From Octopus vulgaris (Eukaryota), in NCBI GenBank assembly GCA_951406725.2, contig OX597830.1, positions 39,060,001-39,124,000 of the forward strand: 64,000 nucleotides of DNA, written 5' to 3'. Under the pieces are notes generated by a model. That model made no database searches and was not told the DNA's origin. It saw only the letters and a program-made list of their open reading frames with translations. The position numbers and the translations under genes were made by a program. Numbering within the stretch: the stretch's first letter is position 1; each line of letters begins with the position of its first letter. Below, piece by piece: positions 35,895 through 60,394 of this stretch.

Positions 35895-36195
35895 AGTAAG
35901 CGAAAAACTAATGTGCATTTGTGTATTACTACACGCGTTTCCGTGGCGTTATTATCCTTAATTCAGAAAACGGTTATATTATATATTTCCGCCTGTAACT
36001 TATTGCAACACTATGTAACACTACGCACATTTGTATTTTCATAACGCGTCACTTCCTCAGGAGGTATTTTTGATGTGGCACAAAATATTTAGTGATATAT
36101 GATAATTCAGTTCTATATTTAAGAGATGAGAAATTATGTACACTATTTACATTATTTACATTTGACGGATATTTGTTCTCATCTTGTTTGTCGTT

Positions 36196-36241
36196 AACAC
36201 AACGTTTCGACTGATATACTCTCCAGGCTTCATCAGGGGTC
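36196..36241 (-). ncRNA. Minimal type I hammerhead ribozyme motif (copy A)
   Basis: Reverse strand GACCC-CTGATGA-A-GCCTGGAGAGTATATCAGTC-GAAA-CGTT-GTGTT. Confidence 0.65.
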
Positions 36242-36296
36242 TTGGGGAAATTTCGAACCAGGGTTCTTATTCCTAAGGTATTTTTCGATGTTGCTG

Positions 36297-36363
<67 letters not shown>

Positions 36364-37262
36364 GTTTGACTTTTGCTTTATGTTTGTACAAGTTGGCTCC
36401 AAGTCTCACCCAGAGACCTCAAGAGACAACAGGTTGGAAGTTCAGGTTGTTGTTATGCCCAGTGTGCCATATATTCGGGGGGGGGAGGTTGTTTGTGTTG
36501 TACTAGTGAATGTCTAATAAATAAATTAAAAAAACAAGAAGTTTGTATTAAACCTTGAGATTACATAGAGAGTATTTTGCGTAGGATATGAGCAGTTCCC
36601 ATGAGCACTATCTTTTAAATTTCTGCCATTTTGGGGTTTCCTGGTATCTAAGTTACGTAGTAATCAGCCCCTTTCGCTATCATTCCCAGGGCACCCATGA
36701 CAACAGGTATCGTTTTAGTCTTCAGGTTCCACGTTTTGCTGATTCCTATTTCAAGATCTTTATATTTGCTCAGTTTTTGGTAGGTCTTGACAGATGCGTT
36801 TATATCAATTGGGACAGTCATATCAACGAGGAGGCATGTTCTTTGTCTGAAATCTTTCAATATGATGTCTGGCCTGTTTGCATCTAACTTTCTGTCAGTT
36901 TGAAGGGTGAAGTTCCAGAGGAGTGAGGTGTGGTCAATTTCAAGCACTGGAGGTGGTTTGTGTTCCCACCATTTTTTTTCGTGGGGTAAATCCAGGTTTT
37001 TGCAAATTACCCAGTGAATATATTGTGCAGCTCTATCATGCCTGTTGAGGTACTGTGTAGGCGCTAGAAGACTGCACTTGGAGACAACATGATCAATGGT
37101 TTCATTTTGTTGTCGATATACACGACATGTTGGGCTACTGCCGTTCTTTAATATGTTGGCCTGGTAGTTTCTTGTTGGTAGGCATTGATCTTGAGCTACT
37201 ATGATAAATCCTTCTGTTTCAGATTTTAAGCCAGATTATTATTATTATTATTATTATTATCA

Positions 37263-37303
<41 letters not shown>

Positions 37304-37963
37304 TTAAGCCAGAGGCCATTAGCCATTGATGGGTCAGGGCTTTGTCAATATCTGCATTATTCGCTCTCTTTGGGTATTTGCCATAGAGAGGTTTTTCTTG
37401 CCATTTATTATTCAGAATATATAAGGCCACAGTTTTGACACGTTTTTTCATGCGCTTAGCTTTTTCTGTGCTTGTTTCTTGTATGACTATCTCTAATTCC
37501 GAAATTTGTTGTATTCGGAATTCACTTAGATATTCCTTTGCCTGTTTTGTTACTGAGCATGATGCTTTCTTGTTTTCATGTTTTGAGACAAGTTTTAACA
37601 TCCAGTCCTAAGACTTTTTCAGATAGGTGTCTAGGCCAATTGTAGCAATCTTCATTGTCATTGCCAGTTGTAAAAGACCACGGCCTCCCTCTTTTCTTGG
37701 CAGATAAAGTCGTTCTGTATCTGCCTTAGGGTGGTGCATTCTATGCATTGTCAACAGTTTTCGTATTTTTCTGTCAAGCTGACATATTTCAGTAATTGAC
37801 CGGTTAACGATATTGAAACTGTAAGTCACGACTGGTATGGCTAATGCATTGATCGCTTCGATCCTGTTTCTTGCATTCAGCTCTGTCTTGAGTATTGCTC
37901 TCACTCTTCGATAACATTCTCTCCTGATCCTTTCCTTCATCTCTGAATACCTTATTCCGTCCC

Positions 37964-37964
<1 letters not shown>
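36364..37964 (-). mobile_element. 5'-truncated R4/Dong-like non-LTR retrotransposon (RT thumb, CCHC finger, REL endonuclease)
   Basis: Motifs RLYLPRKEGGRGL, WQEKPLYGKY, GLKSETEGFII-AQDQ, ETIDHVVSKC, RHDRAA, RPDII and KLSKYKDL. Both ends abut (TAA)n, the known Dong target. Confidence 0.9.
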
Positions 37965-38026
<62 letters not shown>

Positions 38027-38033
38027 CATTATA

Positions 38034-38080
<47 letters not shown>

Positions 38081-38279
38081 CATTATTATTATTATTATTA
38101 TTATTCTCTGCCTGGAATCGAACTCAGAATCTTGGGGTTAGTGGCTCGCGCTCTTAACCACTACGCCATATGTCCATGGGCGCAGTGGTTAAGAGCGCGG
38201 GCTACTAGCCCCAAGATTCCGAGTCCGATTCCAGGTTGTGACCTGAATAATAATAATAACGATGATGATGATGATGATG

Positions 38280-38380
<101 letters not shown>

Positions 38381-38461
38381 AACAACAATAATAATAGTAA
38401 TAATAATAACAACATCGAAAAATACCTTAGGAATGAAAACCCACGTTCGAAATTTCCCTAA

Positions 38462-38507
38462 GACACCTGATGAAGGCTGGAGGGTATATCAACCGAAACG
38501 TTATGTT
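38462..38507 (+). ncRNA. Minimal type I hammerhead ribozyme motif (copy B)
   Basis: GACAC-CTGATGA-A-GGCTGGAGGGTATATCAACC-GAAA-CGTT-ATGTT. Confidence 0.65.
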
Positions 38508-38774
38508 AAAATGTAAATAATGTATATGATAATTCAGTTGAATTTTTGACGACTAATTTTGGTTTGTGTACGTCTCCGTAAATAAGAGATTTGCTAAAAG
38601 AGAAAGAGACAATAAGAAGCAGATCCAAAACAAGAATTTTGATCAAATACGTTTGACCAACGTCTTTAAGGTGGCACCCCGGTATGGCCGCCGGCATCAG
38701 ACTGAAACTATTAAAATATTACAGGGGCGTTCAGTAAAAATCTTGCTTCACTAGGTGTCTTAGAGCTGAGGGAT

Positions 38775-38990
38775 ATTCTTTTCTACTCTAGGTAGACGCT
38801 CCGAAATTTTTGGAGAAGGGGTAAGTCGATTAGATCCACCCTAGTATGCAACTGGTACTTAATTTATCGACCATGAAAGGATGAGAGGCAAAGTCGACCT
38901 CAGCGGAATTTGAACTCAGAACGTAAAGACAGACGAAATACCGCTAAGCATTTCCCCGCGCGTGATAACGTTTGTGCCAGCTCGCCGCCC
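38775..38990 (-). mobile_element. Full-length family 'M' SINE
   Basis: 14-bp TSD TAGAGCTGAGGGAT at 38761-74 and 38991-39004. Confidence 0.93.
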
Positions 38991-39029
38991 TAGAGCTGAG
39001 GGATTTTACAAGTCTTTTATTTTTTATCA

Positions 39030-44264: not shown

Positions 44265-44461
44265 CTATATACACCAAGCACGAAAGTTTGTTGGAGAGGG
44301 CTCATCAATTACATCCACCTCAATGCTCAACTGGTAGTTATTTAATCGAATCTGAAAGGATGAAAGGTAAAGCTGACCTCGGCGAAATTTGTACTCACAA
44401 TATAAAAAAGGACGAAATGTCATTAAGCATTTTGGCCGACGTGCTAACCGTTCTGCCACCT
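44265..44461 (-). mobile_element. Family 'M' SINE
   Basis: Central GAAAGGATGAAAGG...GACCTCGGCG and head GTGCTAACCGTTCTGCCA. Confidence 0.8.
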
Positions 44462-45602
44462 GAAAGGTGTTGATGGTATTATACGAATATTTATTGTTAT
44501 TGTTGCAATTTAACCTAGAGTAGTGTCACAAAATTATGAAAATATATTAAGAATTTACAGCTCTGACCATCAAATCTTTTGAGGTTTTGTATAAATACGA
44601 ATTCGTTTTACAGAGCTTAGAAAAACTGGAGTACTACTGCAATAAGTGTGTGTATCTGAGAGGGGAATATGTTGAATAAAATCATAATTAACTGATCTTC
44701 CAGTATATTCTTTTACCCAGTAGCAGGAACTTTTCAGCACGTTCTCTTAAATTATCGAACGGATCATTTTCAAAGACAGTCGGACGGTGTTCGTTAAGTG
44801 ATATTTGAAGCAGGAGTGTTGCACATATAGAGTATAGTTCACCGGGTAAAACATTAGAATACTTATTTCATGGTGTTTGTAGAATGCCTGTATCCACTAA
44901 CTCATGGACCTAAGACTCCCTGATCGTATAATGGGATCTAATTAACTTTTGAGTACGTGTGAATGACGATTTAATCAGCTCACTGCTTTACAGCTAGTTT
45001 ATATGATTTTTGTCCTTTTTTAAGCATGTCTAAATGAAGATTAGGTTCAAGTAATGTAGAGTGTACTAAAACATCAAATACAAAATTACCATCAAAGGTA
45101 TTTATTTCATATTATCTAACACATCAAATATAGGTTTTCTTCCTAATTGAATATTCTTGAAGGGGAATCTGCACACAAGATTTCTGATTGAATTAGTGCA
45201 ACTTTAATCAGTTCAATGGTTCCTTCAAGCAGAATAACACTGATTATATATCGGTCTTCACGTTTTATTGACTTTTATAAGCAACGAGGATTTACAATTA
45301 TTTTCTTCATATCATCATTATCATCATCATCATCATCAGCAGCAGCAGCAGCAGCAGTAGCAGTAGCATTATAATCATCATTATTTCGCACGCGCATGCA
45401 AATTACTTAGTTTATCGAGAATCTTGGTGACAATATATCTCCTCAAGTTTCAAGCGTCATTCCCAAGATTCTTGCAGAATATATGATGGTACGTTTCTCC
45501 AGGTCAACAATGCGAGTTTGAATTCCAATTCATTTTAGATCATCATGATTATCATGATCATCATTATCATCCTCCTCATCAACATCACCATTATCAGGAG
45601 GC

Positions 45603-46192
45603 GGTGTAATCCACTCACCCACTCCCACAAAATGCAGGCCTTGTGCCTATAGCAGAAAGGATTATCATTATGACTATTATTATTATTAAGGCGGCGAGCT
45701 GGCAGAAACGTTAGCGCGCCGGGCGAAATGCTTAGCTGAATTTCGTGTGCTATTACGTTTTGAGTTCAAGTTCCGCCGACGTTGACTTTGCCTTTCATCC
45801 TTTCGGGCTCGATAAATAAAGTACCAGTTACGCACTGGGGTCGATGTAATCGAGTTAATCACTTTGTCATTGTTTGTCCCTTTAACGTTTAGCCCGTTCA
45901 GGGCAATAAATAAATAAGAAAGGATTATTATTATGACTATTATTATTATTAAGGCGGCGAGCTGGTAGAGTCGTTAGCACGCCAGGCGAAATGCTTCGTG
46001 ATATTTCGTCCGTCTTTACGTTCTGAGTTCAAATTCCGCCGAGGTCGACTTTGCCTTTTATTCTTTCGGGGCCGATGAAATAAGTAGCGGTGAAACACTG
46101 GGATCGATCAAATAAGTACCACTGGTGTAATCTACAAGTCCCCTTTCCGTACATTTCAGGTCTTGTGCTTTTCATAGAAATGATTATTATTA
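45603..46192 (+). mobile_element. Tandem family 'M' SINEs (tail remnant + copies at 45690-45916 and 45953-46192)
   Basis: Two heads GGCGGCGAGCTGG, each preceded by the same 36-bp spacer (45654-89, 45917-52; 1 mismatch). Confidence 0.9.
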
Positions 46193-46779
46193 ACAGTTAT
46201 CTTTTTAAAGAGAATTAGAAATATTATTATTATTATTTTAGTTTCGTTCAGGTTCGGTGATATTCCAAGTAGGATTTATGTGGGTTGCGGTTTACTACCT
46301 CTAACCTTAGGTATCCACTAGTTTCCCTCCAAAGTACTTGAACCCTCCTTGCTATCCCTCAGAGACAAAGTTTCTGTAGGAGCTCTTGGGGAAATTCTAT
46401 TCCAGTATTTTTCAACCATCTGGTAAATGGTTTCATTATGAGGATTTCAAGCCTTTCCTCTAACCAAGAGGCCTTCGACGCAGCAGCCCCATAACATAAC
46501 GAGGCCCTAGCCGCCAGCGGGTTCAAGGACCGCATCTCCTATATGCCGGAACTCAACATCTGCAGAAGGAAACACCACAGAATTACAATTTGGTTTTTCC
46601 CCTTCTCCCTTAATACTATAACGCCTGTAGGTAGACTTTTCCTAAAATTAATAGACAAACACTTTAGTAACTCCCATAGGTATACCCTCATTCAGGCACA
46701 ACTTTAGTGTCTCGTTTAGCTGTGCCCCTAGCACTAAGAGTATCTTAGTTAGCGCCCCTAAGCAACGTGAAGAGATGGG

Positions 46780-48075
46780 TTGTTCATGCAGGATCCGCGA
46801 CATTTACCCAGTAGAAAGCCGCTGCGCAACCAAAGGCGTCGTCTTTCAAGCTGAGGTGCGGGCAAATCCAACCAATTCCACCGGCAGGAACCATAGCAAT
46901 CATAGCAACCGTAGACACGGGGGCAGAACCATCAACTGAGCCAGCAACACCGCCACTACCACCACCACCACTACCATTACCGCATCGAACCGCCTTACGA
47001 ACGTCAACAACACCAACACCGACAGTGCCGACTTCACCCCTGACTACACCACCACCATCATTAACATTGACCACAGTGACGTTGCCTCCAACGCCAGCCT
47101 TACAAATAGCAGGCACGACAGCCTACCTATTTCTTTATTACCCACAACGGGCTAAACACAGAGGAGACAAACAAGGATAGACATAGGTATTAAGTCGATT
47201 ACATCGACCACAGTGCGTAACTGGTACTTAATTTATCGATCCCGAAAGGATGAAAGGCAAAGTCGACCTCGGCGGAATTTGAACTCAGAATGTAAAGCCA
47301 GACGAAATACCGCTATGCCTTTCGCCCGGCGTGCTAACGTTTCTGCCAGCTCGCCTGCTCTCATAGCAGCAGTAACAGACCAAACTATATCGGCCGCAAT
47401 ACCAACAGCAGAAGCAGCAGCAGCGTCCCAAGTAGAGGCACCGGCATGGGCGAGAATAATGGTAGCCCTGTCAACGAGAACGATACGTCCACCACCGGGG
47501 AAGATGACAATAATAGCAATAATAACATTTATGGTAATACCTGCGGCTACTGTGATAACATCGATAGCGCCCCCTCCACATTCGGCAATAACATTACCAA
47601 CACCGCCACCACACCCACCTTCACCATCACAAGTGGACCCAGCAACATCCTTGACGACAGCACCATCAACAACTAGAGCAGCAACATATTCGTCGACCAT
47701 AACGGCAGCATCGTCGACACCACCAGCAACAATAACAGCAGCAGTAGCAGCAGCGTCATCAGCGGCAGCAGCAGCAGCAACAGCGCCTGCAGCAGCAACA
47801 GCAGCAGCAGCAACAGCGGCAGCAGCAGCAGCAACAGCGGCAGCAACATCAACCTCGGCAGTCTCAATAACACCAACACATACACCAGCGGCAACACATG
47901 CAGAGGCAGTAACACTACCAGTGGCACCACCACCAACATCCCCAGCTCTAGCACCATCATCGGCAGCACTAGCAGCAGCAACAACAGCAACAGCAATAAC
48001 AACAGCAGCAACAACAGCAACAGCAATAACAACAGCAGCAAGAACGGCAACAACAGCAGCAGTAATAGACACAAC
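46780..48075. repeat. Triplet-rich (GCA/ACA/CCA) low-complexity tract inside the Penelope relic
   Basis: Directly visible; it produces the 353-aa and 340-aa antiparallel ORFs. Confidence 0.85.
47128..47355 (-). mobile_element. Family 'M' SINE inserted in the Penelope relic
   Basis: Near-identical to 33140-33361. Confidence 0.92.
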
Positions 48076-48704
48076 ACCGACTCCATGCATCCAAAGAAAT
48101 ACATTGGATGCGCGGGAACTTCCTTTAAGAAACGTCTTTCCAACCATAGATACTCTTTCAGGGTCTCCGCTGGCTAGCCATACTTTGCAACGGAAAGAAA
48201 ATGGAATTCTATACTCGATATCATGGAAAATCCTCCACCGTCCGGGTCCGTACATAAATGGAACGAGACGCTAAATGCTATAAGTAGCCGAATGCATGAT
48301 ATTCGCGCGTACCAGAGATCATACTGAACTCCACAACGGAGATTTTCGGACATGCTTGCATTTCAGGTGATTCCTGTTAGCGTTTTGGGAACTGCATAAT
48401 TGCAATGTTACATATCGATAGCGATATTAGCTGGGGATTGATTGTTGATGAGAGTAGGGGATAACCACCTACCTTTTACACTCATAGCCGACAGGTGACG
48501 TGAATGAAGGGGGACGACACAGCTGAAGCCAATGACCTGTACCAAAGAGAGATAATCCCCATTGTTTATACCCGTATCGTTCCCCCTACTCCATTTTTTA
48601 AGAGGCCATAGGCCAACAGGTCTTAGGCTCTGAAGATATGCCATAAAGGTACCCTTTATGAGGGTAAACCCTGGGTAACCCTATAAACTGCCATTCACCA
48701 TTAA

Positions 48705-50023: not shown

Positions 50024-52518
50024 ATATTTGCAACAAGCTATGACCTTGAAATATCTTATCGCTCAGCGGTTAGGACATTCTTTAAATTGATAGTAGACAT
50101 TATAGCAATCAGTTTTAGATACAGAATGATTAACAACAGACCCACTAGGGGATTATTCTTCTTTCCCATCTGAAATTGGTTCGTATGGGCTCAGATATAA
50201 AATGAGATAAGTATCGTTGCGGAGACATGGTGGTGCGTTTGAAAGTGGCCAAATGCTTGAATGACGGCTGGAAGACAGCCAATATCGTCGTAACAACAGC
50301 GGTTGTCGTTATAGATTTACTGCACTTTTAATGATAACGGACTCTTCTTCCATACCTGACACCTCCCCCTCTCCAGAAAAACAAAAAGTATTGAACAATT
50401 GTATCATTTACTAATCTTTCATTCCTAAGAAAAGAAAACAACATACAATCTTCGAAGAAAATCTTAAAATGTTTACTAAACACTCATGAATTCGCTGATC
50501 AATATATTTTCTCGCACATATACAGGCATGCTACACATACAGAAAAATACATGATACACATGGCTAGACTATAGAACATTTACTAGACCCATTAGTTTAT
50601 TTACTAATGCAATTTCCGATGCTTAGCATAAAATCAATAAGTTTAAAATCTATTCTAAGTTTGAAATAAACATATACGAATAATTCATCATTATAAAATC
50701 CAGTGATTATCAAAGGAAAGGTAAAAGAAAAAAAATACTACACTTACCCTTCCTTATAATTCAATAACGTATCTGTCCGACTTTCATAGATTTTTATCTA
50801 ACGCAGGCGCCAATATTGTTTCCAACATTGTTTAGAAGAACAGAAGCACCTAATTTAAAGAAACGAGATTACGTTAGGATGATTGAAGAGATATGCTGTA
50901 AAGTATTTTAATGATTTCCATCAACAACCAATGGCATTTCACAAAAGAAATATGAGGAAAGTATTTTACAGAAGAAATATGAGCAAGGATTAACTAACAA
51001 AGAGAAAAATGCATAGAATGAAGTACGCTATGAAAATTGTCTACTAGATCTCTGAACGAAAAAAAATGGTGGAATGGTTTACCATAAATGTAAATCTAAA
51101 ATCAAATATAATAGAGAACATCTTAATATTGACGATTTGTGAATAAATTGATTGCCAAAGTAATTGGAAATATATATATATAAACAAGTATGCCAGCGTG
51201 GTGTTCAAAAATATAGGATAGACTCATTGATTGTCTACATAATTCAAAAATCGGAATTCTATATTTTAATCTATTTTTTAATAAATATATTATTAAAGTA
51301 TTCATATAAGCATAAATATTTTCAAACTATAACACGGCTAATGAAAACCAAAAATGTTCATAAATAATGGCCGCATTTTTTTTCCGAAAATTAAAAAAAA
51401 ACAGACAACGTCGGGAATTACATTAAAAAAAAGACATCAGCGAACAAAACTGTGCATATTTAAAGTAAGTGACGAACGAGGTAGACTTTACTCCCAACCA
51501 CATTGGTCGCAAAGACTAGTGTCAGGCCAATAGCGTTTGTTTTTGAGTATCGAGTGTACAGCCTCTCAGATTACAGGTGAAATGTGCAAGAGTAGAATAC
51601 TACTATTTACTGCAGTTTCCTTCTATACTGAAATACTCGAGAGTCCTCAATATTATACTTGAAAATTTCACGAAAGAGAATTTACTTCTGATTTAAGTGA
51701 TGGGATTTGGGCAGTTTCTAATATAGAAGGATATTATCTAACTTTTCTAATTATATGTTTGATCCCCCTCCCAGCACTTGGGTCACGGATTTAATTACAG
51801 ATCCTCTTATCGCAGTATAACCCTTTATCCGTCCTACGTTTCACAAATACTGGATTTTAATAGTCTTCGGTTATAATAGTCCAAACTCTTTATTCTGTAA
51901 ATCAATAACGAATACAGTTGCTGTTAGTCGTTTACAGCCTTTCTAAAATATCTTACTTCAGCTTTGCCTCCTCCTTCCTTATACAAGTTTCATCTCTATG
52001 CGGAATTTCGAGAGTGTATTCCACATTATATTTTACGAAGCCCTTTCCTCCTTTCGGGGTCGACAAATTAAGTATTAAAGAAGTTTCATCTCTATGTAAT
52101 CAAGAAAACTTACTCTAAACTTGCACTATTTCAATCAACAGACAACTAAAATAATTTTATCAAAAAGGATACCAATGCTATGCCTCACAATATCTCCAAT
52201 AATTTCCACTGGTGAACTCAAGTATATAATATAGTTATAACTACTTACCAAAATCTCTACACTGACTGGTTACACAATTCAAATATGACTTATAATAGCA
52301 TATTCATAGACATTTTAGACATTAATATCGCATTGCAACCACTCCCCCTTGCTCACTAGTGCCAAATGTTCAGCCTCTAATGGTGGCTGTAACACATTGC
52401 AAATAATCGAGCGTCACTGTGGTGTTTCGTTACCTTAACATTTTGCATGGCCCGCATAGCTTGCTAACATCTCTAAACTAGCGCATCGCAAAAAATTCCT
52501 TTAAGAAAGCCAATTTAA

Positions 52519-52751
52519 AAGGCGGTGAGCTGGTAGAATCGTTAACACTCCGGGCGAAATGTTTAGCGGCATTTCGTCTGCAACTACGTTCTGAGTTCAA
52601 ATTACGCCGACGTCGACTTTGGCTTTCATCCTTTCGGGGTCGATAAAGTAAGTACCAGTTACGCACTGGGGTAGATGTAATCGACTTAACTCATTTGTAT
52701 GTCCTTTGTATGTCCCCTCTATGTTTAGCCCTTTGTGGGCAATAAAGAAAT
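52519..52751 (+). mobile_element. Full-length family 'M' SINE
   Basis: TSD AAGAAAGC(C/T)AATTTAA at 52503-18 and 52752-67. Confidence 0.92.
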
Positions 52752-52904
52752 AAGAAAGCTAATTTAATGCAATCGTTTATCTTCTTTCATTGCATTAAAG
52801 ACTTCCCGCGTACTGTTACTCCCCAGAACTGAAAAACTGTCAGAATCTCAATATTGTTTATATTATGTTTTACATCAGCCACCCGAAACTGAAGCAGAAA
52901 TTCG

Positions 52905-53052
52905 ACGGTATATTCCACATTATATTTTACGAAGCCCTTTCATCCTTTCGGGGTCGTTAAATTAAGTACCAGAGAAATTCTGGAGTCGATGTAATCAACT
53001 AGTGTCCTCGCAAAAACTTCAGGCCTTGTGTCTATAATACAAAGGATTATAT
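52905..53052 (+). mobile_element. Family 'M' SINE 3' fragment, partly duplicated at 52017-52076
   Basis: TATTCCACATTATATTTTACGAAGCCCTTTC(A/C)TCCTTTCGGGGTCG occurs at both sites. Confidence 0.7.
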
Positions 53053-53451
53053 TCTACGAAGTGATAAAGAGCATTATTGAGACTCTGTTATCCCGGTTAT
53101 ATAATAATTGCTAAATTATACCTAAAACTTCACCCATTTCAAGAAGTGTAGTTCATCAAATTTGACCCTGTATTCCACTGGAACCTATTTTGTTGATTCC
53201 TCACCCGTAATTCGTATTTCATTTGCGAAACGCCAAGTGGACGCAAGATAATAGCTAACTGCAAAGTGAACTTTTACACTTTCGAATTCTAGATAGAAAG
53301 GGACGTCACAAAATACCACAAGTCATATAATCGTTCAGTTCTATATTTATTTTATGCCCACGGGCATATGGAGTAGTGGTTAAGAGCGCGGGCTACTAAC
53401 CCCAAGATTCCGAATTCGATTCCAAGCAGTGATCTGAACAATAACAATAAC

Positions 53452-54594
<1,143 letters not shown>

Positions 54595-54596
54595 TA

Positions 54597-54640
<44 letters not shown>

Positions 54641-54689
54641 TATCGGAAACTACCTTAGGAATGAGAACCAAGGTTCGAAATTTCCCCAA

Positions 54690-54735
54690 GACACCTGAAG
54701 AACGTTGGAGGGTATATCAGCCGAAACATTGGGTT
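54690..54735 (+). ncRNA. Minimal hammerhead ribozyme motif (copy C, mutated stems)
   Basis: GACAC-CTGAAGA-A-CGTTGGAGGGTATATCAGCC-GAAA-CATT-GGGTT. Confidence 0.55.
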
Positions 54736-55334
54736 AACAACAAGTAAGATGAGGACAAATATCCGTCGAATGTAAATAATGTAAATAATCATATAACCGT
54801 TGTTTCAACTGAGCGGTTCTACCAATCCACTGAGTTTTTACAACAAAATAATAAGCATTAACATTTCGAAGCTCTGATAAGCATAGCATCACTGGTGAAT
54901 TAATAAATGAGTTGGTCTTAAATTTCTCTCTAAAGAATTCGTTTTTGCGTAGCACTTAATGACCTTAAGAATAGAAAATCACGCACACATACACACACAC
55001 ACACACCAAATTTTGCTCAGAGGCACATATCAGAATAGTAGTAATTACTGTTCCAAATTTGATTAAGTATATGTATGATAACACGCTTGAATCATAAACA
55101 TGTCGTCTTAAAGAAAATATGTCCCTTGAGGGAGTTATTATTTCTAGCATTTCAATCGACCAACGAGATGATCTGCTTCTGTATGGGTTATCTGAATGTA
55201 ACGTGACTTGGTTGACACTTCTCTATTATTCACTAAATATTTCATAATAACTATTTTTGGTCATTACACTTGATGCACTGAGCTCGATTTAATCGATTTA
55301 TCCCACCCCACCGCCATCATAAGCTGTCTCAATA

Positions 55335-60176: not shown

Positions 60177-60309
60177 AGATAATGCGCCCATACTCAATAT
60201 ATTTGATTCAGGTGGAAAATTGAATAGATATTCAGATCAAGTTTAAACAAGGAAAATTCATTTAAATTGACTCTCTGTTAATAGAGTAGTAATATTTTTC
60301 TCACTCAAA

Positions 60310-60394
60310 GGCGGCGAGCCTGCAGAATCGTTAGCACGCCGGTCGAAATGCTTAGCAGTATTTCAGCTGCCGTTACGTTCTGAGTTCAAATTCC
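60310..60394 (+). mobile_element. Family 'M' SINE head (truncated)
   Basis: GGCGGCGAGCCTGCAGAATCGTTAGCACGCC...GAGTTCAAATTCC. Confidence 0.85.

Follow-up and report, generated by a model that had tools for sequence, protein, structure and literature searches.

The window analyzed here is a 64,000-nucleotide stretch of Octopus vulgaris DNA, which was placed on contig C17 of the 2.8-Gb genome. It contains two copies of a LINE, each inserted in the (TAA)n array of a short repeat that we call the host. Both copies read (TAA)n-TCTGGCTTAAAATCTGAAAC at their common junction, are in sense orientation to their hosts, lie 16 kb apart, and are mutually inverted. The original prediction had placed a LINE of one family, with a restriction-like endonuclease, in sense orientation inside both arrays, and this is borne out by the coordinates and the junction sequences. 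Positions in the LINE are numbered from the shared base, with position 0 or 1 corresponding to window position 37235 on the minus strand and 53553 on the plus strand.

Copy 1 is arranged on the minus strand in the order host head, (TAA)n, LINE piece A, TAA array, LINE piece B, (TAA)n, and host tail. Its host belongs to a back-to-back pair that is bounded by a 17-bp target-site duplication, TATATGATAATTCAGTT, present at 36096–36112 (plus strand) and repeated exactly at 38523–38539 (plus strand). The head of host arm 1 (38107–38181, minus strand) carries what we take by eye to be A-box- and B-box-like motifs (38168–38158 and 38125–38114), and ARAGORN called no tRNA in the host head. This head is followed by the host array (37965–38105, minus strand), which forms the (TAA)n 5′ of the LINE. 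Piece A (37301–37964, minus strand) is a 5′-truncated segment of 664 nt from the same subfamily as piece B (36362–37235, minus strand), whose 874 nt include a zinc knuckle (zf-RVT, E = 7e-4, under the cut-off), a restriction-like endonuclease region, and a short-type 3′ UTR. The internal TAA array that separates the two pieces is 65 nt long (37236–37300, minus strand) and has two GAT units 24–29 nt from the junction. It is flanked by a 13-bp duplication of LINE sequence, TCTGGCTTAAAAT, whose upstream copy ends piece A (37301–37313, minus strand) and whose downstream copy is the junction common to copy 2 (37223–37235, minus strand). Piece B is followed by (TAA)n at 36299–36361 (minus strand) and by the arm 1 tail (36107–36298, minus strand), which carries a candidate core of a minimal type I hammerhead (CTGATGA at 36236–36230). 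Host arm 2 (38179–38522, plus strand), with its head, TAA array, and hammerhead tail, stands back to back with arm 1 and is free of the LINE.

Copy 1 without its internal array and one 13-bp repeat matches the uninterrupted family sequence, and pieces A and B have identical nearest relatives. Private changes in copy 1 are 2.5 times denser at 36362–37117 (positions 119–680) than elsewhere (22/562 versus 12/763, p = 0.013), and p values below 0.05 for such unevenness were also obtained for 3 of 44 other copies. A-to-I editing was rejected as the source of the extra changes since A>G and T>C are both present rather than being confined to one strand.

Copy 2 lies on the plus strand, with the host head at 53356–53429, (TAA)n, the LINE from 53553 to 54595, (TAA)n, and the host tail at 54639–54787. 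The target-site duplication of this host (host 2) occupies 53323–53335 and 54789–54801 (both plus strand), which match at 12 of 13 bases. An inverted tip of a host tail precedes the head (53336–53349, minus strand), and the same 14-mer is present at 36108–36121. Head and array together span 53356–53552 (plus strand), with one GAT unit 30–32 nt from the LINE junction. The start of the LINE at 53553 is exactly the nucleotide at which copy 1 is split by the array at 37236–37300, as had been noticed at the outset. Three segments make up the LINE: an old part (53553–53863, plus strand) that covers family positions 0–311 and is of an L045/L078-like subfamily; three short relics (53864–53992, plus strand; about 379–389, 560–667, and 874–888) with microhomology joins; and a young part (53993–54595, plus strand; 333–896) with a young-subfamily 3′ UTR and a poly(A) run. 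The (TAA)n and tail of host 2 (54598–54787, plus strand) follow, with the hammerhead core altered to CTGAAGA at 54695. Positions 0–311 and the relics match the L045/L078 subfamily, whereas positions 333–896 are nearest to young copies, and by these matches copy 2 joins an old relic to a young 3′ end. Its haplotype at 119–123 is unique and hence names no master. The 13-bp direct repeat, the target-site duplications of both hosts, and the rearranged, chimeric structure of copy 2 did not figure in the original prediction.

By its sequence features, the LINE is a Dong/R4-like non-LTR retrotransposon. One family member (L081) has an open frame of 1,283 aa with a reverse transcriptase match (RVT_1, E = 1.5e-27) and a zf-RVT match under the cut-off (E = 2e-4), and solved R2 proteins can be aligned to residues 518–1256 (E = 7e-29). 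Pfam reported no APE domain in this protein, and its C-terminal region includes a presumed PD-D-K motif that was spotted by eye. Among the 49 loci represented by the first 50 listed matches, TAA repeats are present at the 3′ end of 43 and at the 5′ end of 34, and the 5′ ends range from −3307 to −8, in agreement with the TAA targeting and variable 5′ truncation that the original prediction had attributed to Dong-type elements. Dong has been listed as TAA-specific (PMC3812793) and assigned to the R4 lineage (PMC3774820). The LINE in the window shares the TAA-array target with Dong of Bombyx mori, DongAg, and DongBg of that lineage, and it likewise resembles R4-lineage elements, as far as these two sources describe them, in its single ORF, reverse transcriptase, zinc knuckle, R2-alignable C-terminal region, and variable 5′ truncation. 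However, PMC3812793 puts Dong among the APE-type elements, whereas the L081 protein is without an APE domain by Pfam. Five recently active Dong-R4 families with 1,129 insertions are described for Octopus vulgaris (PMC13282606). Like those families, the Dong LINE of the window is abundant and has a very young subfamily (several copies are within 1% of the majority).

Judged from its sequence, the host is better read as the end repeat (pLTR) of a Penelope-like element (PLE) than as a separate SINE, and this reading was partly confirmed. A 23-mer of the host repeat has 4,025 exact matches genome-wide. The hammerhead core CTGATGA..CGAAA is intact in 18 of 43 tails and stem II is present in the majority fold; no hammerhead fold was obtained for three single host tails (z about +0.6 to +0.9), and an Rfam scan of the window gave no match at gathering score. 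Both insertions in the window have an inverted, 5′-truncated partner arm, and an inverted tail and/or head is present at most of 29 tail loci. A sequence that extends the host upstream has 259 exact matches and leads into a coding frame with a GIY-YIG-like end. Because this extension leads into coding sequence, the host does not behave as the stand-alone non-coding unit that a tRNA-derived SINE would be. Upstream sequence is shared with locus L238 in all 11 other loci, over ~330 nt in 3 of them. HTH_animal and GIY-YIG were found in 10–55% of the members of Atlas look-alikes, and Pfam returned no match for the PLE-like fragments.

Minimal hammerheads have been described in PLE repeats (PMC4209133), PLE insertions usually carry an inverted partner arm (PMC8557442), and animal hammerhead repeats have likewise been derived from PLE end repeats (bioRxiv 10.64898/2026.07.22.740005). 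The host resembles the PLE pseudo-LTRs of the first two sources in its putative CUGAUGA-N-stem-GAAAC core, its palindromic AACGUU, its inverted 5′-truncated partner arm and, in some copies, a candidate upstream ORF with a GIY-YIG-like end. It is unlike the pseudo-LTRs described in PMC4209133 and PMC8557442 in its putatively tRNA-like head and in the internal (TAA)n that is the target of Dong. The three layers of parasitism first proposed (PLE, SINE, and Dong) thus reduce to two, since the host itself would be a Penelope-like end repeat. Elsewhere in the window, a 166-aa low-complexity frame ends at 48085–48177 (plus strand) with MHPKKYIGCAGTSFKKRLSNHRYSF, which we take to resemble a GIY-YIG motif; Pfam gave no match for this frame, which may be a fragment of a further Penelope-like element. 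Another, commoner short repeat occurs in both orientations at 38790–38995, 44305–47355, 52000–53000, and 60307–60394.

The junction shared by the two Dong copies is rare. The 20-mer at the junction has 1,881 exact matches genome-wide, and two of these are preceded by AATAA, both within the window. When any eight A/T bases were accepted before the 20-mer, four matches were obtained: the two window copies, an older non-host copy that is truncated at this base too but has another junction (L240), and a diverged, uninterrupted relative. The left junction of copy 1, between piece A and the array, has a single exact match genome-wide. These junction counts are of exact matches, which mutated junctions escape. 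Because the exact junction occurs at 2 of 1,881 matches, both in the window, neither a chimeric family nor a TAA-bearing subfamily appears to have spread. For any one base of this zone, the chance that a Dong copy ends there is ~0.001 (~1.8 of 1,881 expected per base), as computed from the 9 of 46 distinct copies that end within 200 nt upstream. By these counts, the junction is shared more than chance would predict. No internal TAA array turned up in the rest of the 107 stored Dong loci, some of which overlap. An independent origin of such an array looks rare because none of 51 solo TAA arrays tested is flanked by a perfect repeat of ≥10 nt.

Smaller features are also common to the two copies. 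Both have A27, which is found in 23 copies genome-wide, including close relatives of both (L042, L051, L044, L045, and L046), and which may therefore have been inherited; its use as a subfamily marker was rejected since the 23 copies are scattered over the tree. A GAT unit at a like distance into the array was found in 3 of 54 other 5′ arrays, within a distance range that was picked after both copies had been inspected, and the spacing in the two arrays is off by one to two units. G491 is shared by both copies, is in none of 44 others, and sits in the young part of copy 2. A single short tract would not account for its sharing, for which homoplasy and a second small conversion are candidates.

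Common 5′ ends were seen in other settings as well. A second pair of neighbors with a common 5′ junction consists of tandem Dong pieces on C13 at 52.69 Mb (L195/L198), which share a 5′ end at position 268, lie directly behind a third copy, and include one young and one older-looking piece (98% versus 93%). The common 5′ ends of L084–L086 and of L067/L070 were set aside as DNA duplications since their flanks are common too. Several copies also end at −48, −86, or −773, where there are AAT-like microhomologies.

The two hosts inserted separately. Each has its own target-site duplication (17 bp for the copy 1 pair and 13 bp with one mismatch for host 2), and because these duplications are separate, neither host moved with the other, nor did a crossover invert the interval between them. 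Inversion or segmental duplication was rejected as a link between the copies since similarity ends at the host ends, with a duplication for each. The host tails differ at 20 of 149 sites, exceeding 93% of background pairs (mean 8.9%), the heads differ at 8 of 74, and no non-majority, derived base is common to both hosts in heads or tails. The hosts are about 5–7% off their majority, and the Dong parts have 1–4% private changes; the insertion of Dong was likely later than that of the host because the Dong parts have fewer changes.

The Dong parts likewise point to separate origins. Of 672 sites, 33 differ between them, and they were sisters in none of 200 bootstrap trees (52 rows, with L055 omitted and a bootstrap that is not fully settled). 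Copy 1 has T120/G159/AAACATAAA, as do L042 and L051, whereas the old part of copy 2 has C120/A159 plus the AGACATAAA relic, and C120/A159 is present in 14 of 16 stored copies with AGACATAAA. Over positions 1–118 the copies differ at a single base, and four other copies are likewise one base from copy 2 there; from 119 on, the differences amount to 13/192 and 18/256. On these sequence characters, the Dong parts stem from different subfamilies and different masters. The statement in the original prediction that both insertions contain the same LINE therefore holds for the family and not for the master, since the subfamily-marking sites differ. The common descent that it derived from the identical junction is not supported: the hosts have no derived base in common, the Dong parts are never sisters, and the target-site duplications are separate. 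Trees, subfamily sites, and host comparisons gave no congruence between Dong and host relationships.

We favor, with a probability of about 0.6, independent TAA-targeted insertions followed by a short, local, templated copy of the 5′ junction of copy 2 into copy 1. Some local exchange seems to be needed because neighbors from different masters share a junction that was found nowhere else. The shared junction is thus likely a one-off DNA scar and not the mark of one mobile element riding another. Ordinary chance would have truncated the old part of copy 2 at position 0. Near position 13 of copy 1, a DNA end left by a break, by a stalled fork, or by copy 1 cDNA during insertion could then have paired with the inverted neighbor 16 kb away and copied its first bases plus 65 nt of upstream array. 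Rejoining to copy 1 at AAAAT via an AAT microhomology would leave the 13-bp duplication. Later, a younger Dong may have entered the 3′ array of copy 2 and joined by several microhomology jumps, with most of the old body deleted. One event suffices in this scheme because the ordinary 5′ junction of copy 2 can serve as template. A27 and the GAT unit are weakly consistent with a templated copy. Counting against the scheme are the thin sequence signal over positions 1–118, G491, and the higher density of private changes in piece B (22/562) than in piece A (12/763).

Non-allelic gene conversion takes place between neighboring repeats. SD-MMEJ and MM-BIR are described as giving templated insertions that have direct repeat motifs and serial switches at microhomologies (PMC7407515), and annealing at 5′ junctions is known from R1 and R2 (PMC2718515). 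The short copied tract, direct repeat motif, microhomology joins, and several switches in copy 2 resemble the SD-MMEJ and MM-BIR products of PMC7407515; unlike in the cases presented there, the template here would be 16 kb distant and reached via repeat homology. The switch may have occurred either in the course of repair or while copy 1 was inserting.

The same scar could have formed in the reverse direction, which we consider unlikely. Copy 1 would then have gained its array and 13-bp duplication first, by a tail-only retro-insertion, by re-priming of reverse transcriptase, or by repair synthesis on its own adjacent arrays; copy 1 would in turn have supplied the 5′ end of the old part of copy 2 through cDNA annealing at insertion or later gene conversion. 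The 13-bp duplication does resemble a target-site duplication (those of the hosts are 13 and 17 bp), copy 1 may be the older of the two, with a larger number of private changes than copy 2, and this order of events accounts equally well for the privacy of the junction. However, it requires two rare events, one of them an internal array that is in no other stored Dong locus, and the exact flanking repeat is missing from all 51 solo arrays. Coincidence, in which the array of copy 1 arose alone and copy 2 was truncated at the same base by chance, is improbable. L240 makes position 0 a possible ordinary 5′ end, and other truncated copies end at adjacent AT-rich bases (−14, −8, and +7), but the per-base chance of ~0.001 would have to combine with an internal array found in 1 of 107 loci and with a separation of 16 kb. 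An assembly artefact, with the array and duplication of copy 1 produced by mis-joining with copy 2, is somewhat less probable still. The copies are inverted near-repeats, and public contigs over 35900–39000 are cut at arrays; however, copy 1 has private bases of its own from position 38 on, the two arrays differ, both hosts retain matching target-site duplications, and in one other sample, contigs X2 and X3 connect the host pair to its outer flanks on both sides.

The two explanations offered by the original prediction fare worse than the favored local templated copy. That a SINE-plus-Dong master was transcribed and moved as a unit is highly improbable. Host–Dong chimeras do occur genome-wide (12 in stored loci and 2 more), and the host head looks Pol III-like. 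Yet an exact-match search found the junction at this locus alone, with no third copy. The hosts have no derived base in common, their Dong parts descend from different masters, and the partner arm in the insertion of copy 1 is without Dong. The other chimeras have different 5′ ends: ten others among the 107 stored loci begin at ten other places (one of them cut by the end of the locus), and the two more begin at about 637 and 657. A composite host–Dong element was not encountered in this sample: no dispersed copies with the same junctions were found, and the relationships of host and cargo do not match. Least probable of all is a Dong subfamily whose internal TAA array sets the 5′ end by annealing to TAA targets. 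Within the exact-match limits of the pattern search, the interrupted form and the truncated form each occur once genome-wide, and the nearest relatives of copy 1 (L051, L065, and L079) are uninterrupted at the site.

A bolder form of the templated-copy reading, which we regard as doubtful, is that nearby resident copies lend Dong integration a DNA template. Copy 1 cDNA would leave its RNA for copy 2, enter the TAA array there, and re-prime on the RNA, and the young cDNA in copy 2 would likewise hop along the adjoining old copy. If this is true, microsatellite-targeting LINEs would swap 5′ junctions with neighbors in cis during insertion; if the switch fell during insertion, it would also bear on how the 5′ junctions of RLE-type LINEs are made. 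An identical 5′ junction in two LINE copies need not mean a common master, which matters when composite elements are inferred. A search of the openly accessible literature brought up no account of Dong within a Penelope-like end repeat, nor of neighboring Dong copies that share a junction.

The role that remains for the host is that of a landing pad only, as one part of the original prediction had it: 5 of the first 50 Dong matches lie directly upstream of a host tail. Of 40 arrays in arbitrary stretches totaling 400 kb, one was a host array, as was one of 13 in the 200 kb adjoining the window. Dong was in host arrays at 5 of 47 distinct loci versus an estimated host share of 4.6% (p = 0.064), and TAA-LINEs were present in 6 of 29 host arrays versus 3 of 53 (p = 0.061), with two of those six having supplied reference ends. 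A preference for host arrays would thus amount to a two- to fourfold enrichment that is not significant (p ~0.06). Two of the 29 host loci carry the Dong family and four carry two other TAA-associated LINE families. For at least three TAA-targeting LINE families, this very common Penelope-like end repeat is a source of TAA targets.

At L168, L171, L175, and L176 and in the flanks of many Dong loci, two more LINE families, about 63–72% alike to the Dong LINE of the window, end in TAA arrays and often stack beside Dong. On C1 at 39.89 Mb (L087), the inverted tail and the head of a host pair enclose TAA sequence that holds Dong and another LINE, and the strand of this array flips. Also on C1, three near-identical 3.4-kb Dong copies with TAA spacers of >1 kb (L084–L086, 37.59–37.61 Mb) form a tandem Dong amplification inside a very long TAA array.
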